In this document: piece by piece, positions 2,816 to 9,687 of the stretch
How positions within the stretch are numbered: position 1 is the first letter of the stretch
Layout of the letters: every line of letters begins with the position of its first letter
Assembly: GCA_964617525.1 (NCBI GenBank)
Contig: CAZTWG010000019.1
Span: 1 to 9,687 of the forward strand
Length of the DNA stretch: 9,687 nt
Source: an uncultured Gammaproteobacteria bacterium
GTDB taxonomy: Bacteria; Patescibacteriota; Patescibacteriia; UBA2591; UBA6264
Direction of reading: 5' to 3'
The notes under the pieces: generated by a model
Told to the model about the DNA's origin: nothing
The model's database searches: none
What the model saw: only the letters and a program-made list of their open reading frames with translations
Program-made: the position numbers and the translations under genes

Positions 2816-3859
2816 ATGTGTGGTATGACTACTTTATTAGTTATTTTAATTATTGTTATTGTGCTTGGCGGAGCTCTTTCTTTTGTTTATTCTAATAAAC
2901 GTTTTGAAAAATTTAAAGAGGATGTTATAAAAAATCAGGGAGTTCTGATGTTGCAGGACCAAATAGGAGAGATACGCACTAGCATTCAATCTCAATCAGG
3001 GCAGAATATAAAGATTATTCAAGATGTTATGGAAAGATTGGGGAAGCTTGATAAAACTAATCAAAAGATAGTTGATTTTGGGGGACAACTAAAAGACCTT
3101 CAGAATATTTTAAAAAACCCAAAACATCGTGGAATTTTAGGAGAGTATTGTTTAGAAATGGTTTTAAAGAATGTTTTGCCACCAAACATTTATAAAATGC
3201 AATACAATTTAGGCAAAGATGAACAAACTGGCAAGGATTTAATTGTTGACGCGGCAATTTTTGTTCAGAAGAAGATTATTCCTATTGACGCTAAATTCTC
3301 TTTAGAAAATTATAATCGTTTAATCGAAGAAAATGACAAGAGCAAACGTCAACAATTAGAAAAATTATTTAGACAGGATTTAAAGAATCGCATCAATGAA
3401 ACTTCTAAATATATTAATCCATCAAAAGATACTTTTGATTTTGCTTTCATGTTTATCCCTTCTGAGGCTATTTATTATGATTTATTGGTCGGAGAGGTGG
3501 GAGCCATTAAAAGCAAGGCCTCAAGTTTAGTTGAATATGCCTTTAGGGAAAGGCATGTTATTATTGTTTCCCCAACTACATTTTTAGCTTATTTGCAAAT
3601 GGTGTTACAGGGTTTACGTTCTTTGCAGATAGAAGATTCGGCGAAAGAAATTAAAAAAAATGTAGAAAAACTCATGAAACATATTAGCTCTTATGATGTT
3701 TTTTTGCAAAAGTTGGGACAAAATTTAAGCGTAACAGTAAATACTTACAACACAACATATAAGGAATTTCAGAAAATGGACAAAGATGTTCTAAAAATAA
3801 CAGGGGATAATGCGGGGATTGATGCGCTATCTCTTGATAAACCCAAATTAACTGATTAA
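2816..3859 (+). CDS. rmuC: DNA recombination protein RmuC (membrane-anchored, coiled-coil, PD-(D/E)XK-like nuclease family)
   Basis: N-terminal TM (TTLLVILIIVIVLGGALSFV) and a coiled-coil region. RmuC-family blocks recognised by eye: DAAIFVQKKIIPIDAKFSLENY, FAFMFIPSEAIYYDLL, VIIVSPTTFLAYLQMV. An alternative ATG lies at 2825. Confidence 0.85.
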   Translation: MCGMTTLLVILIIVIVLGGALSFVYSNKRFEKFKEDVIKNQGVLMLQDQIGEIRTSIQSQSGQNIKIIQDVMERLGKLDKTNQKIVDFGGQLKDLQNILKNPKHRGILGEYCLEMVLKNVLPPNIYKMQYNLGKDEQTGKDLIVDAAIFVQKKIIPIDAKFSLENYNRLIEENDKSKRQQLEKLFRQDLKNRINETSKYINPSKDTFDFAFMFIPSEAIYYDLLVGEVGAIKSKASSLVEYAFRERHVIIVSPTTFLAYLQMVLQGLRSLQIEDSAKEIKKNVEKLMKHISSYDVFLQKLGQNLSVTVNTYNTTYKEFQKMDKDVLKITGDNAGIDALSLDKPKLTD

Positions 3860-3863
3860 CTTT

Positions 3864-5000
3864 ATGGCAAAACGAAAAAATTTTATTCAAGCAACATCAA
3901 TTTTAGTTGGGACAATTGTAGGCGCTGGTATTTTTGGTTTACCGTACGCATTTTCAAAGGTTGGTTTTATCCCTGGCATTTTTTATCTTTTATTTCTAGG
4001 GATTGTATTTTTGATTACAATGTTTTGTTATGCTGAGGTAACTTTACGCACTAAAGGTGATATGGAAATGTCTGGTTATGTACGTCGTTATTTAGGTAAA
4101 AAATGGCAAATTTTAATTACAATATCTTTAGTGCTTGGAGGCTTTAGTGCTTCAATTGCTTATACTATTGGAGTAGGACAATTTTTGCATGCCATTCTAG
4201 GTCCTGTTTTGGGTGGTAGCCAAGTATTCTGGTCATTGTGTTTTTGGACATTGGCCAGCATATTAGTTTTTAAGGGTATCGGGATAGTTAGCAAAATAGA
4301 ACTTTTTATGGCTTTTGGGTTAATTGTGATTGTTTTGATAATTTTTGTAATGAGTTATTCATATATTGATATAGACAATTTAAAAAGTTTTCGTTTAGAA
4401 AACCTTTTTTTCCCTTATGGGTCAGTCTTATTTGCTTTGGGTGGAGCAACGGCTATCCCTACTATGCGCAGAATGTTGAGAAAAAATGTTAAATCGTTGA
4501 AGAAGTCAATAATTCTTGGCTTGTCTATTCCTATATTCATTTATATAATTTTTAGCTTAACGGTCATTGGCGTTAATGGTCAAAATGTTTCAGAAACAGC
4601 TATTACTGGATTAGCTAGGGCAACTAACAGTAGTGTTTTATTGATTGGTGGTATTTTTGGAATTTTAGCAATGACAACTTCGTTTTTGGCATTAGCTCAT
4701 ATTTTAAGCGAGTTATTCAAACGTGATTACAATATCCCAAGGTTTCCGGCATGGGCTTTAACAGTTTTTGTTCCTTTGATTATATTTCTTTTAGGATTGA
4801 GGAGTTTTATCGTTGTTATTAGCTTTGCTGGTGGTATTCTCTCTGGCATTCAGGGTATAGCTTTAATTACTAGTTATTATCGCGCCAAGAAAATGGGCGA
4901 TAGAGAGCCAGAGTTTAGTTTTAATCTACCAAAGCCAGCTGCATATGTTATTTACGCAGTATTTCTTTTTGGTATTGTTTATCAACTTATTTATTTGTGA
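3864..5000 (+). CDS. Amino-acid permease (APC superfamily; Aa_trans / Trp-Tyr-permease-like), ~11 TM
   Basis: N-terminal motif ATSILVGTIVGAGIFGLPYAFSKVGF is typical of amino-acid/auxin-type and aromatic amino-acid permeases. Multiple TM helices throughout. ATG lies 4 nt after the rmuC stop. Ends at TGA 4998-5000. Confidence 0.8.
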   Translation: MAKRKNFIQATSILVGTIVGAGIFGLPYAFSKVGFIPGIFYLLFLGIVFLITMFCYAEVTLRTKGDMEMSGYVRRYLGKKWQILITISLVLGGFSASIAYTIGVGQFLHAILGPVLGGSQVFWSLCFWTLASILVFKGIGIVSKIELFMAFGLIVIVLIIFVMSYSYIDIDNLKSFRLENLFFPYGSVLFALGGATAIPTMRRMLRKNVKSLKKSIILGLSIPIFIYIIFSLTVIGVNGQNVSETAITGLARATNSSVLLIGGIFGILAMTTSFLALAHILSELFKRDYNIPRFPAWALTVFVPLIIFLLGLRSFIVVISFAGGILSGIQGIALITSYYRAKKMGDREPEFSFNLPKPAAYVIYAVFLFGIVYQLIYL

Positions 5001-5017
5001 ACAAATAATATTTATCT

Positions 5018-6070
5018 ATGTCAGTTTTAGTTTTAAATAGTGGGAGTACTTCTCTAAAATACAAACTATTTTCAAGAAATTCTTTGAGGGTTTTGAAAAG
5101 TGGTAATTTTCAGGGTCTAAATAAGCAATCAGATTATTCTATTGCTTTTAAAAATCTTATTAAAGATATAGGGAACCTGTCTGATATTGAAATGGTTGGA
5201 CATCGCGTTGTTCATGGTGGAGGTAAATTTTTAAAATCTACCGTCATAAATAACAAGAATTTTAAAACTTTATTAAAATTTAATCATTTTGCCCCCCTGC
5301 ATAATCCTCATGCCTTGCAAGTTTTGAAGTTAGCTCGCATTTATATCCCTCATATCCCTCATATAGCTGTTTTTGATACAAGCTTTTTTACTACCCTACC
5401 CAAAAAGGCTAAGGTTTATTCTATCCCGTTAAAATACTATGAAAAATATGGTATTCAGAAATTTGGTTTTCATGGAATTTCATATAAGTATGTAGCTACA
5501 AAAGTAGCCCAAAAACTAAAAAGAAAATTAAATTCAATCAATTTAATTATCTGTCATTTAGGTGGAGGGTGTAGTGTAGCTGCTATTAAAAAGGGGAGGG
5601 CTATTGATACAAGTATGGGGTTTACCCCAATGAGTGGATTAGTTATGATGTCCCGTTCTGGAGATTTAGACCCAGGTCTAATCTTCCATTTAAATAATAA
5701 TTTTAAACTTTCAAATAATAAAATTTATAATTTATTGAACTTCGATTCAGGTATTAAGGGACTTTTTGGGAAAAGTAATTTTTTGGAACTATTGAAAGCA
5801 GTTAAGAATAAAAACAAAAAAGCTCAATTAGCTTTTGATATTTTTGTTTATTCTATTCAAAAATATATTAGTTCTTATTATGGCATTTTAGGGAAAGTAG
5901 ATGCAGTTGTTTTTACGGGAGCTATTGGGTCGGGTAATCCTTATACAATAAGAAAGATTAGACAAGGACTTAAAATTTTAAAAGAAATTAAAATTTTGAG
6001 AATTGTTACGAACGAGGAAATAGCAATTGCTCAAGAATGTATTATTTTACGGGACTCCGCCAAAAAATAA
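5018..6070 (+). CDS. ackA: Acetate (propionate) kinase, compact divergent form (350 aa)
   Basis: ASKHA/acetate kinase blocks: VLVLNSGSTSLKY, GHRVVHGG, APLHNPHAL, AVFDTSFF, FGFHGISYKYV, ICHLGGGCS, DTSMGFTPMSGLVMMSRSGDLDPG, VVFTGAIGSGN, TNEEIAIA. It is ~50 aa shorter than typical enzymes. Confidence 0.85.
   Translation: MSVLVLNSGSTSLKYKLFSRNSLRVLKSGNFQGLNKQSDYSIAFKNLIKDIGNLSDIEMVGHRVVHGGGKFLKSTVINNKNFKTLLKFNHFAPLHNPHALQVLKLARIYIPHIPHIAVFDTSFFTTLPKKAKVYSIPLKYYEKYGIQKFGFHGISYKYVATKVAQKLKRKLNSINLIICHLGGGCSVAAIKKGRAIDTSMGFTPMSGLVMMSRSGDLDPGLIFHLNNNFKLSNNKIYNLLNFDSGIKGLFGKSNFLELLKAVKNKNKKAQLAFDIFVYSIQKYISSYYGILGKVDAVVFTGAIGSGNPYTIRKIRQGLKILKEIKILRIVTNEEIAIAQECIILRDSAKK
5343..5364 (+). repeat. Perfect in-frame 9-bp tandem repeat (2.4 units) inside ackA, encoding IPH-IPH-I
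   Basis: ATATCCCTC ATATCCCTC ATAT read directly. In codon register this is ATC CCT CAT | ATC CCT CAT | ATA. It lies 4 codons upstream of the FDT catalytic-Asp motif. Confidence 0.9.
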
Positions 6071-6146: not shown

Positions 6147-6175
6147 CTCACATCTATGTATAGGTGTGAGTTTTT
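6147..6175 (+). terminator. Rho-independent terminator downstream of ackA
   Basis: 9-bp stem CTCACATCT / AGGTGTGAG (one G-U pair), 6-nt loop ATGTAT, then TTTTT (6171-6175). It is preceded by a weaker AT-rich hairpin, AGCTAAT(6113-6119)/ATTAGCT(6132-6138). Confidence 0.6.
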
Positions 6176-6177
6176 AG

Positions 6178-6186
6178 TTATCCACA
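6178..6186 (+). promoter_or_regulatory. Perfect DnaA-box consensus TTATCCACA (box 1), just upstream of the -35
   Basis: Exact 9/9 match to the classical DnaA R-box consensus. The extended 10-mer TTATCCACAG is shared with boxes 2 and 3. Confidence 0.5.
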
Positions 6187-6194
6187 GGTTATGG

Positions 6195-6223
6195 TTGCCT
6201 AGTGGGGTAAAATGGTTTATAAT
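6195..6223 (+). promoter_or_regulatory. Sigma70-type promoter of the mraZ/dcw operon
   Basis: -35 TTGCCT (6195-6200), exact 17-bp spacer, perfect -10 TATAAT (6218-6223). Predicted TSS is near 6230, about 82 nt upstream of the mraZ ATG. Confidence 0.55.
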
Positions 6224-6231
6224 ACAAATGT

Positions 6232-6258
6232 TGTGGAAGCCTGTGGATAAAAGTGGGG
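6232..6258 (+). promoter_or_regulatory. Candidate MraZ operator: three GTGG-core direct repeats phased exactly 10 bp apart
   Basis: GTGG starts at 6233, 6243 and 6253 (TGTGGAAGCC TGTGGATAAA AGTGGGGAAA), immediately downstream of the predicted TSS. A further GTGGGG lies at 6202-6207 inside the promoter spacer. Confidence 0.5.
6242..6250 (-). promoter_or_regulatory. Perfect DnaA-box consensus (box 2; TGTGGATAA on the + strand), at about +12 to +20
   Basis: Exact 9/9 reverse-complement match. It forms an 11-bp perfect inverted repeat with box 1 (TTATCCACAGG 6178-6188 / CCTGTGGATAA 6240-6250) that brackets the promoter. Confidence 0.5.
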
Positions 6259-6273
6259 AAAACTCAGGTAAAC

Positions 6274-6282
6274 TGTGGATAA
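6274..6282 (-). promoter_or_regulatory. Perfect DnaA-box consensus (box 3; TGTGGATAA on the + strand) in the mraZ leader
   Basis: Exact 9/9 match. The 11-mer CTGTGGATAAA (6273-6283) is an exact direct repeat of 6241-6251, with a 32-bp period. Confidence 0.5.
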
Positions 6283-6311
6283 ACAAAATAGTCTAATTTT
6301 AACGAATTATT

Positions 6312-6755: not shown

Positions 6756-7628
6756 ATGCACGTTCCAGTATTATTAGACGAAGTGTTAGAATACTTGCGA
6801 CCAGAAGCGGGCCAAAATTTTATTGATTGCACTATCGGAGGGGGAGGCCATAGTTTTAAAATTTTATCTTACACTAAACCCAATGGCAAAGTTTTAGGCA
6901 TAGATTTATCACCTGAAGCTATAGAAAAAATTGACAACCAAAGAAGGATGCTAGATGTTAGAGAAAGAATTATTTTAGCTAATGATAATTTTGCAAATTT
7001 ACAAGAAATAGTTGAACGAAATAGTTTTTCTCCCGTTCATGGCATCTTACTAGACTTAGGGTTATCTTCTGATTTGATAGAAAGCAGTGGTAGGGGTTTT
7101 AGTTTTATGAGGGATGAGATTCTAGATATGAGATTTAAACCGGAATCAAATAGCTTAACTGCTCAGCAAATTATTAATCAATATTCTGAAAAAACTTTAA
7201 GAGAAATTTTTTGGAGATATGGAGAGGAAAGATACTCTTCTAGAATTGCTCAAGAAATAGTTAAAAGTAGAAAAAGAAAAAAGATAGAAACTAGCGCTCA
7301 GCTTTCCAAACTAATTAAAGATACTTTAGGTTTTCGTTTCCAAATTAAAGTTTTAGCTCGCATTTTTCAATCATTACGCATTGTAGTGAATCAAGAGTTA
7401 GAAAATTTACGGCAAGCTTTAGCTTCTAGTCTTAATATTTTGTCACCTTCTGGCCGAATAGTTGTCATTAGTTATCATACATTAGAGGACAGAATAGTTA
7501 AAAGATTTTTTAAAGAAGAAGATTCATTTAAAATTTTAACTAAAAAACCAATAACCCCTAGTAATGAAGAGGTTAAAAAAAATCCGCGATCACGAAGTGC
7601 AAAATTAAGGGTTGCGGAAAAAATATAA
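6756..7628 (+). CDS. rsmH: 16S rRNA (cytosine1402-N4)-methyltransferase RsmH (MraW)
   Basis: HVPVLLDEVLEYL, SAM-binding DCTIGGGGHS, LLDLGLSS, GRGFSF, LDMRF, SYHTLEDRIVKRFF, and C-terminal NPRSRSAKLRVAEK. It lies 12 nt after mraZ. Confidence 0.93.
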   Translation: MHVPVLLDEVLEYLRPEAGQNFIDCTIGGGGHSFKILSYTKPNGKVLGIDLSPEAIEKIDNQRRMLDVRERIILANDNFANLQEIVERNSFSPVHGILLDLGLSSDLIESSGRGFSFMRDEILDMRFKPESNSLTAQQIINQYSEKTLREIFWRYGEERYSSRIAQEIVKSRKRKKIETSAQLSKLIKDTLGFRFQIKVLARIFQSLRIVVNQELENLRQALASSLNILSPSGRIVVISYHTLEDRIVKRFFKEEDSFKILTKKPITPSNEEVKKNPRSRSAKLRVAEKI

Positions 7629-7632
7629 TTTT

Positions 7633-7956
7633 ATGATATTGTCTAGAAAACAATTTAAAAAATCTCGTTTCAATTATTCAGTCCTAAATTATCTTTCGCT
7701 GGGAATTCTCTTATTGGTTGTTGTTGTTTCTCTAATCCAAGTTAATGCTGGAGTTTATACTAGTCTAGAAATTAATCAGTTAAAGGAAGAGTTTAAGAAA
7801 TTGCAGGTAGAGAACGAATTATTATTGGAAAAAGAAGCCACCGTCAAGTCTATGGGGAGCCTAAATGAATTGTCGCGAGAGCTAAATATGGTTGAAGTGG
7901 TTGCTGTTAGTTATTTAAGCCCAAGCACAGATACCTTGGCTCGGCTTTCTCGGTAA
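7633..7956 (+). CDS. ftsL: Cell division protein FtsL-like (bitopic, coiled-coil)
   Basis: Position between rsmH and ftsI. Basic N-terminus, a single TM (LSLGILLLVVVVSLIQV), then a heptad-rich coiled coil (LEINQLKEEFKKLQVENELLLEKE) and an FtsL-like C-terminal ELNMVEV...SYL. I prefer ATG 7633 (4 nt after the rsmH stop) to the track's TTG 7612, which overlaps rsmH by 17 nt. Confidence 0.7.
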   Translation: MILSRKQFKKSRFNYSVLNYLSLGILLLVVVVSLIQVNAGVYTSLEINQLKEEFKKLQVENELLLEKEATVKSMGSLNELSRELNMVEVVAVSYLSPSTDTLARLSR

Positions 7957-7968
7957 TTTTACTTAAAT

Positions 7969-9687
7969 ATGAAAGGACGTTTTAAATTTATTATTATTGT
8001 AACTTTTATTTGTGGCGCTTTAATTTTGGGGCGCCTTTTCCAATTGCAGGTTATAGATCATAATTTTAATTCACCGGTTATCAGCGAAGAAACAGTACCA
8101 GCTCCAAGGGGGCGAATATTTATTAAAGAGAAGGAGGGTCTTTTCCCTTTGACCTTAAACCTTAATCAATATCATTTAATTGTTGACCCTCAGGCGATCC
8201 AGAAAGAAGATAAGGTTATGGAAGTGGCAGAAAAAATAGCTCCCTTTTTAGGCATTGTTATTAAAAATAAATCTCAATTTATTCAAGAGGATTCGGGAAC
8301 TGATGATTTCAAAAACTTATTATCGCGACTTTCTCGTAAAGACGATCGCTATGAATTATTAAAAAAAGACCTAACGACCCAGGAGTTTGAAGAAATTAAA
8401 AGCTTTAATCTTCCTGGTATTTTTTTAAATCCTGTTCTTAAGCGTTATTATCCAGAAGCAGAATTTTTTGGGCATTTAACTGGTTTCACCAGGATTATAG
8501 ATGGGAAGCAGAGAGGTCAGTATGGTTTAGAAGAATTTTTTGACAAGGATCTAACAGGTACTGCTGGTCGCCAAGTCAAAAAATTATCATCTTTCCCAAT
8601 TTATTTTACGGATAAGAAGGCTAAGCCTGGTGTAGATATAGTTTTGACTATAGACCGTTCTTTACAATTTTTTGTTTGCAATTTATTGGAAAGGGCAATA
8701 AAGGATTATAAGGCTGACTCTGGGTCAATAATCTTATTATCTCCAAAAACTGGAGCTATTTTAGCCTTAGCTAATTACCCATATTTTGACCCTAATAAAT
8801 ATTTTCAGGTGGAAGATTTGTCTATATTCAAAAATTCAACCATTTCTGATTCTTTCGAGCCAGGTTCTATATTTAAAATAATTACAATGGCTGGGGGATT
8901 GGATTCAAATAAGGTTACACCGACTAGTCTTTTTACAGATGCGGGATTTGTAAAAATTGATGGGGAGACTATTCATAATGTTGATGACGAAAATTTTGGT
9001 ATAGTTACTATGAGAGAAATTATGGAAGAATCAATTAATACTGGCGCAGTTTATGTAGCTGACCTATTGGGGAGAGAATCATTTAGGAATTATTTAAAAA
9101 AATTTGGTTTTGGTAGCTTAACTGGTATTGAACTAACAGGAGAAGTTTCGGGTGACATTAATAATTTAGAAAGAGAACAGCCAATATATTTAGCTACTGC
9201 TTCTTTTGGGCAGGGGGTTTCAGTTACCCCCCTACAAATGGTTACGGCTGTAGGCGCTATTGCTAATTCTGGACAATTAATGAAACCTTTTATTGTTGAT
9301 GAAATTATAGATGGAGACAAAATAATTAAAAAGGATATAAAGCCGATTAGGAATGTAATTTCTCCGTCAGCAGCAGCTATGATTTCAAATATAATGGTTT
9401 CAGTTGTGGACAATGGTTATGGAAGTAGGGCTAGAGTCCCTGGATATCTAGTGGCTGGCAAAACGGGGACTGCTCAGGTTCCAGAATCGGAGGGAGGATA
9501 TTCTGACGAGGTTGTTCATTCTTTTGTTGGTTTTGCGCCAGCAACAAATCCTGTATTTGCAGCTTTAGTTAAAATAGATAATCCCAAAGAAGAACGTTTC
9601 GCGGCCACTACTGCTGCTACTGTGTTTGGCGATTTAGCCGAATTTGTGTTAAAATATTATAATATACCTCCAGACGCAGAACATGGG
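7969..9687 (+). CDS. ftsI: Class B penicillin-binding protein / peptidoglycan D,D-transpeptidase FtsI (3'-partial, runs off the window)
   Basis: Not in the supplied track because no stop is reached. My manual frame-1 translation from ATG 7969 gives 573 codons with no stop. N-terminal TM FIIIVTFICGALILG, then LFQLQVID. Catalytic SxxK = S-I-F-K (8866-8877), SxN = S-I-N (9031-9039), KTG(T) (9460-9471). Canonical position after ftsL. Confidence 0.9.
   Translation, partial: MKGRFKFIIIVTFICGALILGRLFQLQVIDHNFNSPVISEETVPAPRGRIFIKEKEGLFPLTLNLNQYHLIVDPQAIQKEDKVMEVAEKIAPFLGIVIKNKSQFIQEDSGTDDFKNLLSRLSRKDDRYELLKKDLTTQEFEEIKSFNLPGIFLNPVLKRYYPEAEFFGHLTGFTRIIDGKQRGQYGLEEFFDKDLTGTAGRQVKKLSSFPIYFTDKKAKPGVDIVLTIDRSLQFFVCNLLERAIKDYKADSGSIILLSPKTGAILALANYPYFDPNKYFQVEDLSIFKNSTISDSFEPGSIFKIITMAGGLDSNKVTPTSLFTDAGFVKIDGETIHNVDDENFGIVTMREIMEESINTGAVYVADLLGRESFRNYLKKFGFGSLTGIELTGEVSGDINNLEREQPIYLATASFGQGVSVTPLQMVTAVGAIANSGQLMKPFIVDEIIDGDKIIKKDIKPIRNVISPSAAAMISNIMVSVVDNGYGSRARVPGYLVAGKTGTAQVPESEGGYSDEVVHSFVGFAPATNPVFAALVKIDNPKEERFAATTAATVFGDLAEFVLKYYNIPPDAEHG

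Follow-up and report, generated by a model that had tools for sequence, protein, structure and literature searches.

Three DnaA-type boxes interleaved with the MraZ operator at the division operon promoter of a candidate phyla radiation bacterium

Introduction

How bacteria couple DNA replication to cell division is a long-standing question. The bacteria of the candidate phyla radiation (CPR, or Patescibacteria) combine ultra-small cells with reduced genomes and are mostly uncultured, and to our knowledge nothing is known about the control of their cell cycle. The stretch of DNA analyzed here, the 9,687 nt of contig CAZTWG010000019.1 that are referred to as the window throughout, poses this question at a single promoter, that of mraZ and the genes for division and the cell wall (dcw) that follow it. 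A preliminary description of the sequence had noticed three perfect DnaA boxes around this promoter and had read them as a DnaA-box cluster, naming a datA-like titration locus and a lineage-specific extended MraZ box as alternatives. Which protein is likely to read these sites: the replication initiator DnaA, the MraZ protein that the operon's first gene encodes, or both? MraZ operators are known, as are DnaA boxes in promoters; what appears to be new is a conserved dual-coded DnaA-type/MraZ operator on the CPR division operon. The literature searched contained no account of DnaA boxes at a dcw or mraZ promoter and none of CPR MraZ operators or of CPR DnaA boxes, in keeping with the earlier statement that such an arrangement had not been described.

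Results

Three exact DnaA-type boxes surround the mraZ promoter

The window contains three exact copies of TTATCCACA, which conform to the consensus of the R-type DnaA box (TTATNCACA) and are referred to as Boxes 1 to 3 (Table 1). An exact-match search of both strands reproduced the coordinates and sequences of the preliminary description and, as stated there, found no further copy in the 9687 nt. The expected number of copies, previously put at about 0.1, was 0.12 (standard deviation 0.32) in dinucleotide-preserving shuffles, of which none (0/200) contained three or more. Boxes 1 and 2 form a perfect 11-nt inverted repeat (TTATCCACAGG at 6178-6188 and CCTGTGGATAA at 6240-6250), while Boxes 2 and 3 belong to an exact 11-nt direct repeat (CTGTGGATAAA at 6241-6251 and 6273-6283). 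The centre-to-centre distances are 64 bp between Boxes 1 and 2, 32 bp between Boxes 2 and 3 and 96 bp, or about nine helical turns, between Boxes 1 and 3. Both repeats and the first two of these spacings had been noticed before and were verified here.

A promoter scan placed TTGCCT-17-TATAAT, the sole good sigma-70-like promoter that it found on the + strand, between Boxes 1 and 2, in agreement with the earlier observation that these two boxes enclose the -35 and -10 elements. We infer a transcription start site (TSS) at about 6230. Counted from this predicted TSS, the centre of Box 1, which lies 8 bp upstream of the -35 element, falls at about -48, that of Box 2 at about +16 and that of Box 3 at about +48, so that Boxes 1 and 3 mirror each other. 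Extended to a 12-mer (GTTATCCACAGG, 6177-6188), Box 1 has the same sequence as E. coli oriC R1. With this sequence, its inverted orientation and its location outside the direct GTGG array described below, Box 1 is the best DnaA-box candidate of the cluster. Boxes 1 and 3 are also part of the arms of a 20-nt, 85% inverted repeat (6172-6191 and 6269-6288) that is symmetric about 6230.

Box 2 coincides with the middle unit of an MraZ operator

MraZ operators consist of direct GTG(G/T) boxes, three or four in number and 6 nt apart, one subunit of the MraZ oligomer occupying each box; base-specific contacts are made essentially by Lys13, Arg15 and Arg86 within the GTG(G/T) core, and longer spacing of the boxes still allows binding (PMC12957436). 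The sites of B. subtilis MraZ follow GTGG[A/T]G, repeated three times (bioRxiv 10.1101/2022.02.09.479790), and the Mollicutes box is AAAGTG[T/G] with a conserved A-rich flank (PMC8475190). E. coli Pmra, which we read directly as GTGGGaaattGTGGGgcaaaGTGGG, has an array of three GTGGG units without an ATAA flank and without a DnaA box.

The window carries such an array at the dcw promoter upstream of mraZ, with at least three direct GTG(G/T) cores and 6-nt spacers. Its GTGG cores start at 6233, 6243 and 6253 with an exact period of 10 bp (about +3, +13 and +23 with respect to the predicted TSS), and the first of them begins past the end of the -10 element at 6223. Box 2 coincides with the middle unit of this triple, which makes it a dual-coded site. 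The MraZ protein encoded in the window has both DXXXR DNA-binding motifs (D11-K13-R15 and D82-R86). Judged by these features the array, including Box 2, is a predicted MraZ operator, an assignment that does not extend to the whole cluster: Box 1 and the corresponding upstream sites of relatives depart from a 4-bp core specificity with all units direct, as they are usually inverted, lie outside the array and are selected at positions 1-4 and 9.

Three further NTGG cores, spaced by 11 and 10 bp, overlap the -35 element, the spacer and the -10 element and are probable auxiliary MraZ contacts. The GTGG core of Box 3 (6275) lies 22 bp past the third MraZ box, in phase with the array, and the entire series of phased cores (6191, 6202, 6212, 6233, 6243, 6253 and 6275) has successive spacings of 11, 10, 21, 10, 10 and 22 bp. 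The third MraZ box itself, referred to as site 3, is possibly also a weak DnaA-type site.

The arrangement recurs upstream of mraZ across CPR relatives

Two collection scans yielded 160 related CPR mraZ loci with 66-96% MraZ identity and 136 distinct upstream regions. Enrichment was counted for 79 species-level representatives in a zone of 700 nt upstream of mraZ, while the column profile of sites 2 to 4 (sites 2 and 4 being the positions of Boxes 2 and 3) was compiled from 108 loci in an alignment anchored on GTGGGGA only.

The preliminary description had proposed that its reading would fall if the motif were absent from orthologous mraZ promoters or common elsewhere in the genome. The motif was present, often perfectly, in mraZ promoters across the CPR at 67-96% MraZ identity. 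Within 300 nt upstream of mraZ no 9-mer was commoner than TGTGGATAA/TTATCCACA, of which the 136 loci contained 129 copies, and 25 of the 29 copies outside this 300-nt zone were still located upstream of mraZ, at -304 to -653 from its start. At least one perfect box was found no further than 700 nt upstream of mraZ in 55 of the 79 species representatives. The motif was not common elsewhere: these representatives had 79 perfect boxes in 54.8 kb of mraZ upstream DNA and 2 in 414.9 kb of other DNA, an approximately 300-fold difference. The boxes track mraZ and not the upstream gene, as a perfect box was retained in 91 of those 125 loci (of the 136) that lack an ackA neighbour. Most species have only one or two boxes, and many lineages have one.

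The common CPR module can be written as GTGG-TTGAC(-35)...GTGG-tGTAAAAT(-10)...GTGG n6 GTGGATAAAA GTGGGGATAA n12 GTGGATAA, with cores at about -52, -31, -10, 0, +10 and +32 relative to site 2. The phased cores are kept in 93-108 loci, the array cores are 91-100% conserved among the 108 profiled loci, and the TTG of the -35 and the TAnAAT of the -10 element are conserved as well. Among 11 close relatives Box 1 is invariant in 10 and TGTGGATAAA, which comprises Box 2, in all; the TTG, the phased cores, TAnAAT, GTGGGGA.AA and TGTGGA.AA (Box 3) are likewise invariant or nearly so, while the sequences of the spacers, the leader and the terminator drift. On a Saccharibacteria chromosome (locus L074) the related sites TGTGGATGA and AGTGGATAA are accompanied by a perfect box at -231. 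In one CPR subgroup (loci L059, L061, L125, L161, L083, L041, L169, L081 and L159) a second conserved block, AATGCTTGTCT(T/C), directly 3' of a plain GTGGGGAAAAGTGGGGAAAA array replaces the site-4 box.

The full 9-mer is conserved apart from the MraZ array

In the zone upstream of the -35 element perfect copies of the 9-mer outnumbered those with one mismatch (55 vs 39), as opposed to 28 vs 217 in flanking DNA. The mismatches in the upstream zone, counted for box positions 1 to 9, were 7, 1, 9, 3, 8, 3, 5, 1 and 2; T2, T4, C8 and A9 are thus nearly fixed and positions 1, 3 and 5 tolerant, with all nine positions constrained. Classical DnaA boxes degenerate according to TT(A/T)TNCACA (TTWTNCACA), and the tolerance pattern of the upstream sites matches this rule. 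A protein that reads GTGK should leave positions 1-4 and 9 free, yet these are selected, which argues that the 9-mer is more than an MraZ box.

Position and orientation follow the same line. The promoter-proximal upstream box precedes site 2 by 59-64 bp, which places it just upstream of the -35 element, and it occurs across the CPR in either orientation (19 inverted and 8 direct perfect copies), unlike MraZ arrays, which are strictly direct. Site 4 is the position most often perfect across the CPR, with 28 copies at offset +32; its positions 2, 4 and 8 are invariant and its positions 3, 5, 7 and 9 tolerant, although 5 and 7 are MraZ-core positions. In 19 loci, designated class B, the array is plain (GTGGrrAAAAGTGG...) and without an ATAA flank, and 18 of these 19 have exactly one perfect 9-mer, separated from the array downstream of it by about 55-65 or 105-150 bp. 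The MraZ contact loops are identical between class-B and ATAA-type loci. In combination, the alignments show selection on the full 9-mer in its own right, separable from the MraZ array.

The preferred CPR flanks, a-G-TTATCCACA-G, match those of E. coli oriC R1 and R4. Both of these E. coli boxes read GTTATCCACAG(G), and the same G...G(G) flanks are favoured around the CPR boxes. The distances between inverted and direct boxes in the relatives increase in steps of about 10.5 bp (53, 62-65, 74, 85 and 95-100), a pattern suggestive of contacts made in helical phase, for instance by looping.

Genomic context of the cluster

The cluster is located in the 241-nt intergenic region between ackA, with its terminator, and mraZ-rsmH-ftsL-ftsI (Table 1); on the source contig (L001) the gene list continues with murE after ftsI. 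Because the ackA terminator precedes it, the mraZ promoter forms an independent unit. No DnaA or DnaN domain was found in the window by a Pfam scan, as the preliminary description had also noted for dnaA and dnaN, and for known RNA elements in the leader Rfam returned matches below threshold only (MIR827 with 20 bits and Bacteroides-1 with 19 bits). The identical MraZ was found on 14 public contigs, of which JBMXII010000011.1 of GCA_053986565.1 (76 kb) is the longest, and the upstream region was identical in all that were read. Those homologues of MraZ that have a named source are mostly assigned to Patescibacteria/Parcubacteria, which identifies the source as a CPR bacterium. As the upstream regions of ten assemblies with identical MraZ do not differ, polymorphism within the species is uninformative.

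Table 1. Sites and genes of the window that are discussed in the text
Feature	Positions	Strand	Sequence or basis
Box 1	6178-6186	+	perfect TTATCCACA, exact match
Box 2	6242-6250	-	perfect 9-mer; reverse complement TGTGGATAA read on +
Box 3	6274-6282	-	perfect 9-mer; reverse complement TGTGGATAA read on +
Canonical MraZ operator (predicted)	6233-6262	+	three direct GTGG boxes, 6-nt spacers: GTGGAAGCCT GTGGATAAAA GTGGGGAAAA
NTGG cores over core promoter	6191-6194, 6202-6205, 6212-6215	+	ATGG, GTGG, ATGG
Site 3 (third MraZ box)	6254-6262	-	TGGGGAAAA, 2 mismatches to the 9-mer
Sigma-70-type dcw promoter	6195-6223	+	-35 TTGCCT 6195-6200, 17-nt spacer, -10 TATAAT 6218-6223; 10/12 matches in scan
RmuC	2816-3859		Pfam
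Amino-acid permease	3864-5000		Pfam
Acetate kinase (ackA)	5018-6070		Pfam
ackA intrinsic terminator	6147-6175	+	10-pair hairpin 6147-6170, then TTTTT; terminator scan
mraZ, 143 aa	6312-6743	+	Pfam PF02381, E = 6.8e-39
rsmH	6756-7628	+	Pfam
ftsL-like open reading frame	7612-7956	+	dcw gene downstream of mraZ
ftsI/PBP transpeptidase	7960 onwards (dcw genes 6756-9687)	+	Pfam

Several features of the surrounding sequence were recorded in addition. The stem of the ackA terminator shows compensatory changes in a relative with 96% identity (L091; CTCACA...TGTGAG vs CCCCTGCACC...GGTGTGGGGG). The acetate kinase open reading frame is short (350 aa) and its Pfam match spans profile positions 68-350 of 392, so that AckA may be truncated or divergent. 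Upstream of RmuC, three consecutive + strand open reading frames without a Pfam match (23-1984, 2012-2623 and 2623-2811, encoding 653, 203 and 62 aa) are kept in all assemblies of the species; for the first of these the call on the source contig is 756 aa. The strands of the window are asymmetric, with 32 GTGG on the + strand vs 5 CCAC, and the GC skew ranges from +0.05 to +0.23 over all 20 kb of the source contig (L001 1-20432), which is consistent with a long run of leading-strand genes. Several CPR-like contigs (L011, L013, L014, L017 and others, as well as P0009) are titled "uncultured Gammaproteobacteria bacterium" (third party annotation, TPA) or "Bacteroidales bacterium" and are probably mislabelled or mis-binned.

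Discussion

A composite operator as the favoured reading

On balance and with modest confidence, we read the cluster at 6178-6282 as a composite DnaA/MraZ operator on the dcw promoter in which two codes are superimposed, MraZ reading the GTGG array and DnaA being the presumed reader of the 9-mer. The case for DnaA rests on the match to a consensus that is common to most bacteria and on the selection pattern of the 9-mer, from which we infer this role. Part of the original DnaA-box-cluster reading is retained here, since the motif is conserved, rare elsewhere and degenerate in a DnaA-like manner. The part that did not survive is that of three pure DnaA boxes: with Box 2 doubling as the middle MraZ unit and Box 3 keeping the phase of the array, MraZ boxes and DnaA-type boxes are combined in the cluster. 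The alternative of an extended MraZ box, raised at the same time, is borne out in part at Box 2.

A number of observations weigh against DnaA as the reader of the 9-mer. The MraZ core GTGG is part of every box, and Boxes 2 and 3 share the helical phase of the MraZ array. Among the 108 profiled loci site 2 is in most relatives AGTGGATAA, in which A replaces T at the DnaA-critical position 9 and the DnaA box is unconserved at that position; at site 3 most relatives have TGGGGATAA (= TTATCCCCA), non-consensus at position 7, and GTGGGGA is near-invariant. Outside the mraZ upstream regions the 9-mer occurs at or below chance, with 2-4 copies in 415-600 kb of sampled CPR DNA, so that this DNA gives no independent hint of a use of the motif at other places. 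No dnaA gene was detected in the 170 fetched loci by tblastn with a B. subtilis DnaA query. The loci are related and the counts taken from them partly dependent, the 79 used for enrichment being species-level representatives. Conserved A-rich flanks are also found in the MraZ boxes of Mollicutes (PMC8475190), and an extended lineage-specific MraZ specificity, or requirements of wrapping for A-tracts or DNA shape, could explain part of the flank conservation.

Alternative explanations

Carried to its end, this line of argument makes all boxes and their homologues lineage-specific extended MraZ boxes, (T)GTGGATAA, and their likeness to DnaA boxes a coincidence of the GTGG within TGTGGATAA and A/T-rich spacers. 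The GTGG cores are indeed the most conserved columns, Box 2 sits mid-triple with Box 3 following 22 bp on and in phase, site 2 is mostly AGTGGATAA and site 3 GTGGGGATAA, and Mollicutes MraZ boxes share the A-rich flank AAAGTG[T/G] (PMC8475190). MraZ binding also tolerates lengthened box spacing (PMC12957436), and E. coli MraZ is reported at the DnaA box in PmioC in the work cited by PMC4446571. We nevertheless consider MraZ as the only reader unlikely. Structural work confines its base-specific contacts essentially to GTG(G/T) (PMC12957436), the arrays of E. coli and of class-B CPR loci lack the ATAA flank, and the contact loops are the same with or without that flank. A single perfect 9-mer stands apart from the array in nearly all class-B loci, the upstream box mostly runs opposite to the direct array and is found in both orientations at the same position, selection extends to positions 1-4 and 9 outside the core with a DnaA-like degeneracy, and at site 4 the flank is better kept than core positions 5 and 7. 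That some other CPR DNA-binding protein reads the 9-mer, with a specificity that happens to coincide with the DnaA box, seems quite improbable to us. The near exclusiveness of the motif to mraZ upstream regions in about 0.5 Mb of sampled CPR DNA would suit a dedicated local regulator, but this explanation needs a 9/9 coincidence with the most conserved bacterial operator sequence known, in addition to the degeneracy pattern and the R1/R4-like G...G flanks. CPR DnaA, if its domain IV is conventional, would bind perfect boxes anyway, and no candidate regulator gene linked to the locus was found by Pfam in the window or in the gene list of the source contig.

A locus that titrates or inactivates DnaA in the manner of datA or the B. 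subtilis clusters, and thereby buffers free DnaA without a primary role for dcw, is very improbable in our view, even though three perfect boxes lie within 105 bp and the scarcity of high-affinity boxes in the other sampled DNA could make the cluster a major sink. The boxes keep a fixed register to the -35 element, the -10 element and the predicted TSS phylum-wide, which already disfavours the datA-like alternative of the preliminary description, and they are interleaved with the MraZ operator; the single box of many lineages is too few for a sink, and the boxes are always found with mraZ, whatever the upstream gene. Several perfect DnaA boxes in an AT-rich intergenic region might also bring to mind a replication origin. 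This region is a 241-nt promoter and leader with no dnaA or dnaN nearby, and an oriC was ruled out by the GC skew, which is positive with no switch over 20 kb, by the co-directional genes running through the site and by the absence of a DnaA or DnaN domain. A chance origin of the three-box cluster was ruled out by the shuffles (0/200) together with the cross-species conservation; neither an origin nor chance nor a low-complexity artefact is a credible explanation of the cluster.

Proposed mechanism and significance

Under the composite operator that we favour, an MraZ oligomer on the GTGG array, reaching from the -35 element to about +50, would repress its own operon as it does in E. coli, B. 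subtilis and Mycoplasma. DnaA would bind as a transcription factor to Box 1 (about -48), Box 3 (about +48) and, in this lineage, Box 2 (about +16), and its occupancy, following the replication cycle, would modulate mraZ-rsmH-ftsL-ftsI, either by activation or, most likely, by repression. It might act alone, by an interaction between Boxes 1 and 3 across the TSS, or in competition or cooperation with MraZ at Box 2. The two codes should be separable: a change in the flank (TGTGGATAA to TGTGGCGCA) is expected to abolish DnaA but not MraZ binding, while a change of the core from GTGG to GAGG would also alter A7 of the DnaA box and hence hit both codes.

We put forward more tentatively, as a proposal that may well be wrong, that DnaA directly gates the dcw operon across much of the CPR through an operator shared with MraZ, with mirror-image boxes at about -48 and +48, 96 bp apart and in helical phase, bracketing the TSS and a third box that some lineages have on the middle MraZ unit. 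If true, signals of replication status and of MraZ autoregulation would meet within one stretch of 100 bp, a minimal form of replication-division coupling in organisms poor in regulators. The recurrence of the arrangement in most sampled relatives suggests that DNA replication is linked directly to cell division, as far as sequence conservation can indicate this, and a phylum-wide dcw promoter signature that matches the DnaA code and is interleaved with the MraZ operator makes such coupling in the CPR directly testable. Should the reader of the 9-mer be a protein other than DnaA, the same signature would still matter, either as a new definition of the MraZ operator for a large share of bacterial diversity or as the trace of a new regulator.

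Comparison with known systems

Like the canonical MraZ operators of E. coli, B. subtilis (GTGG[A/T]G three times) and Mycoplasma genitalium (four GTG(G/T)), the window has direct GTGG repeats, three in number, at or just past the TSS and upstream of mraZ. Unlike them, it adds phased cores over the -35 and -10 elements and a fourth box two helical turns downstream, its conserved ATAA flanks turn two or three units into perfect DnaA-type 9-mers, and an extra full 9-mer, usually inverted, is present upstream of the -35 element.

The closest parallel to this dual coding is the E. coli mioC promoter, at which an MraZ site is reported to overlap a DnaA box (Eraso et al. 2014, as cited in PMC4446571). 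Its DnaA-type box TTTTCCACAGG is separated by 2 bp from the -35 element that follows it (L171 1500-1560), just upstream as in the window, and has the same orientation as Box 1 (TTATCCACAGG). The mioC promoter is repressed by DnaA, with the MraZ site reported to overlap (PMC4446571), a role that DnaA would have in the CPR by analogy, and the presence of E. coli MraZ at the PmioC DnaA box, as reported there, may reflect an ancient cross-talk of both operators that bears on the purpose of MraZ. Unlike the window, the mioC promoter adjoins oriC and not dcw, contains one or two boxes and lacks a phased GTGG triple; in the CPR the division operon itself bears the dual code, which is conserved across a phylum-level radiation.

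DnaA acts as a transcription factor at promoters with DnaA boxes, among them the dnaA promoter that it autoregulates and those of nrdAB, guaB and B. subtilis sda. The window resembles these promoters (dnaA, nrdAB, guaB and sda) in having consensus TTATCCACA beside or downstream of the core elements, and differs from them in its target, dcw (mraZ), and in the interleaving of the boxes with the operator of a second regulator. The non-origin clusters of high-affinity boxes at E. coli datA and in B. subtilis are similar in composition, but they titrate or inactivate DnaA and are without promoter geometry, whereas here the register is conserved, with one box only in many relatives. In Caulobacter DnaA activates ftsZ, gcrA and other genes, and DnaA boxes in E. 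coli ftsQAZ are an old proposal. The idea of a replication initiator in direct control of division genes is shared in concept with both of these; the genes, the promoter architecture and the phylum are different, and the overlap with an MraZ operator that characterizes the CPR promoters is absent from those systems.

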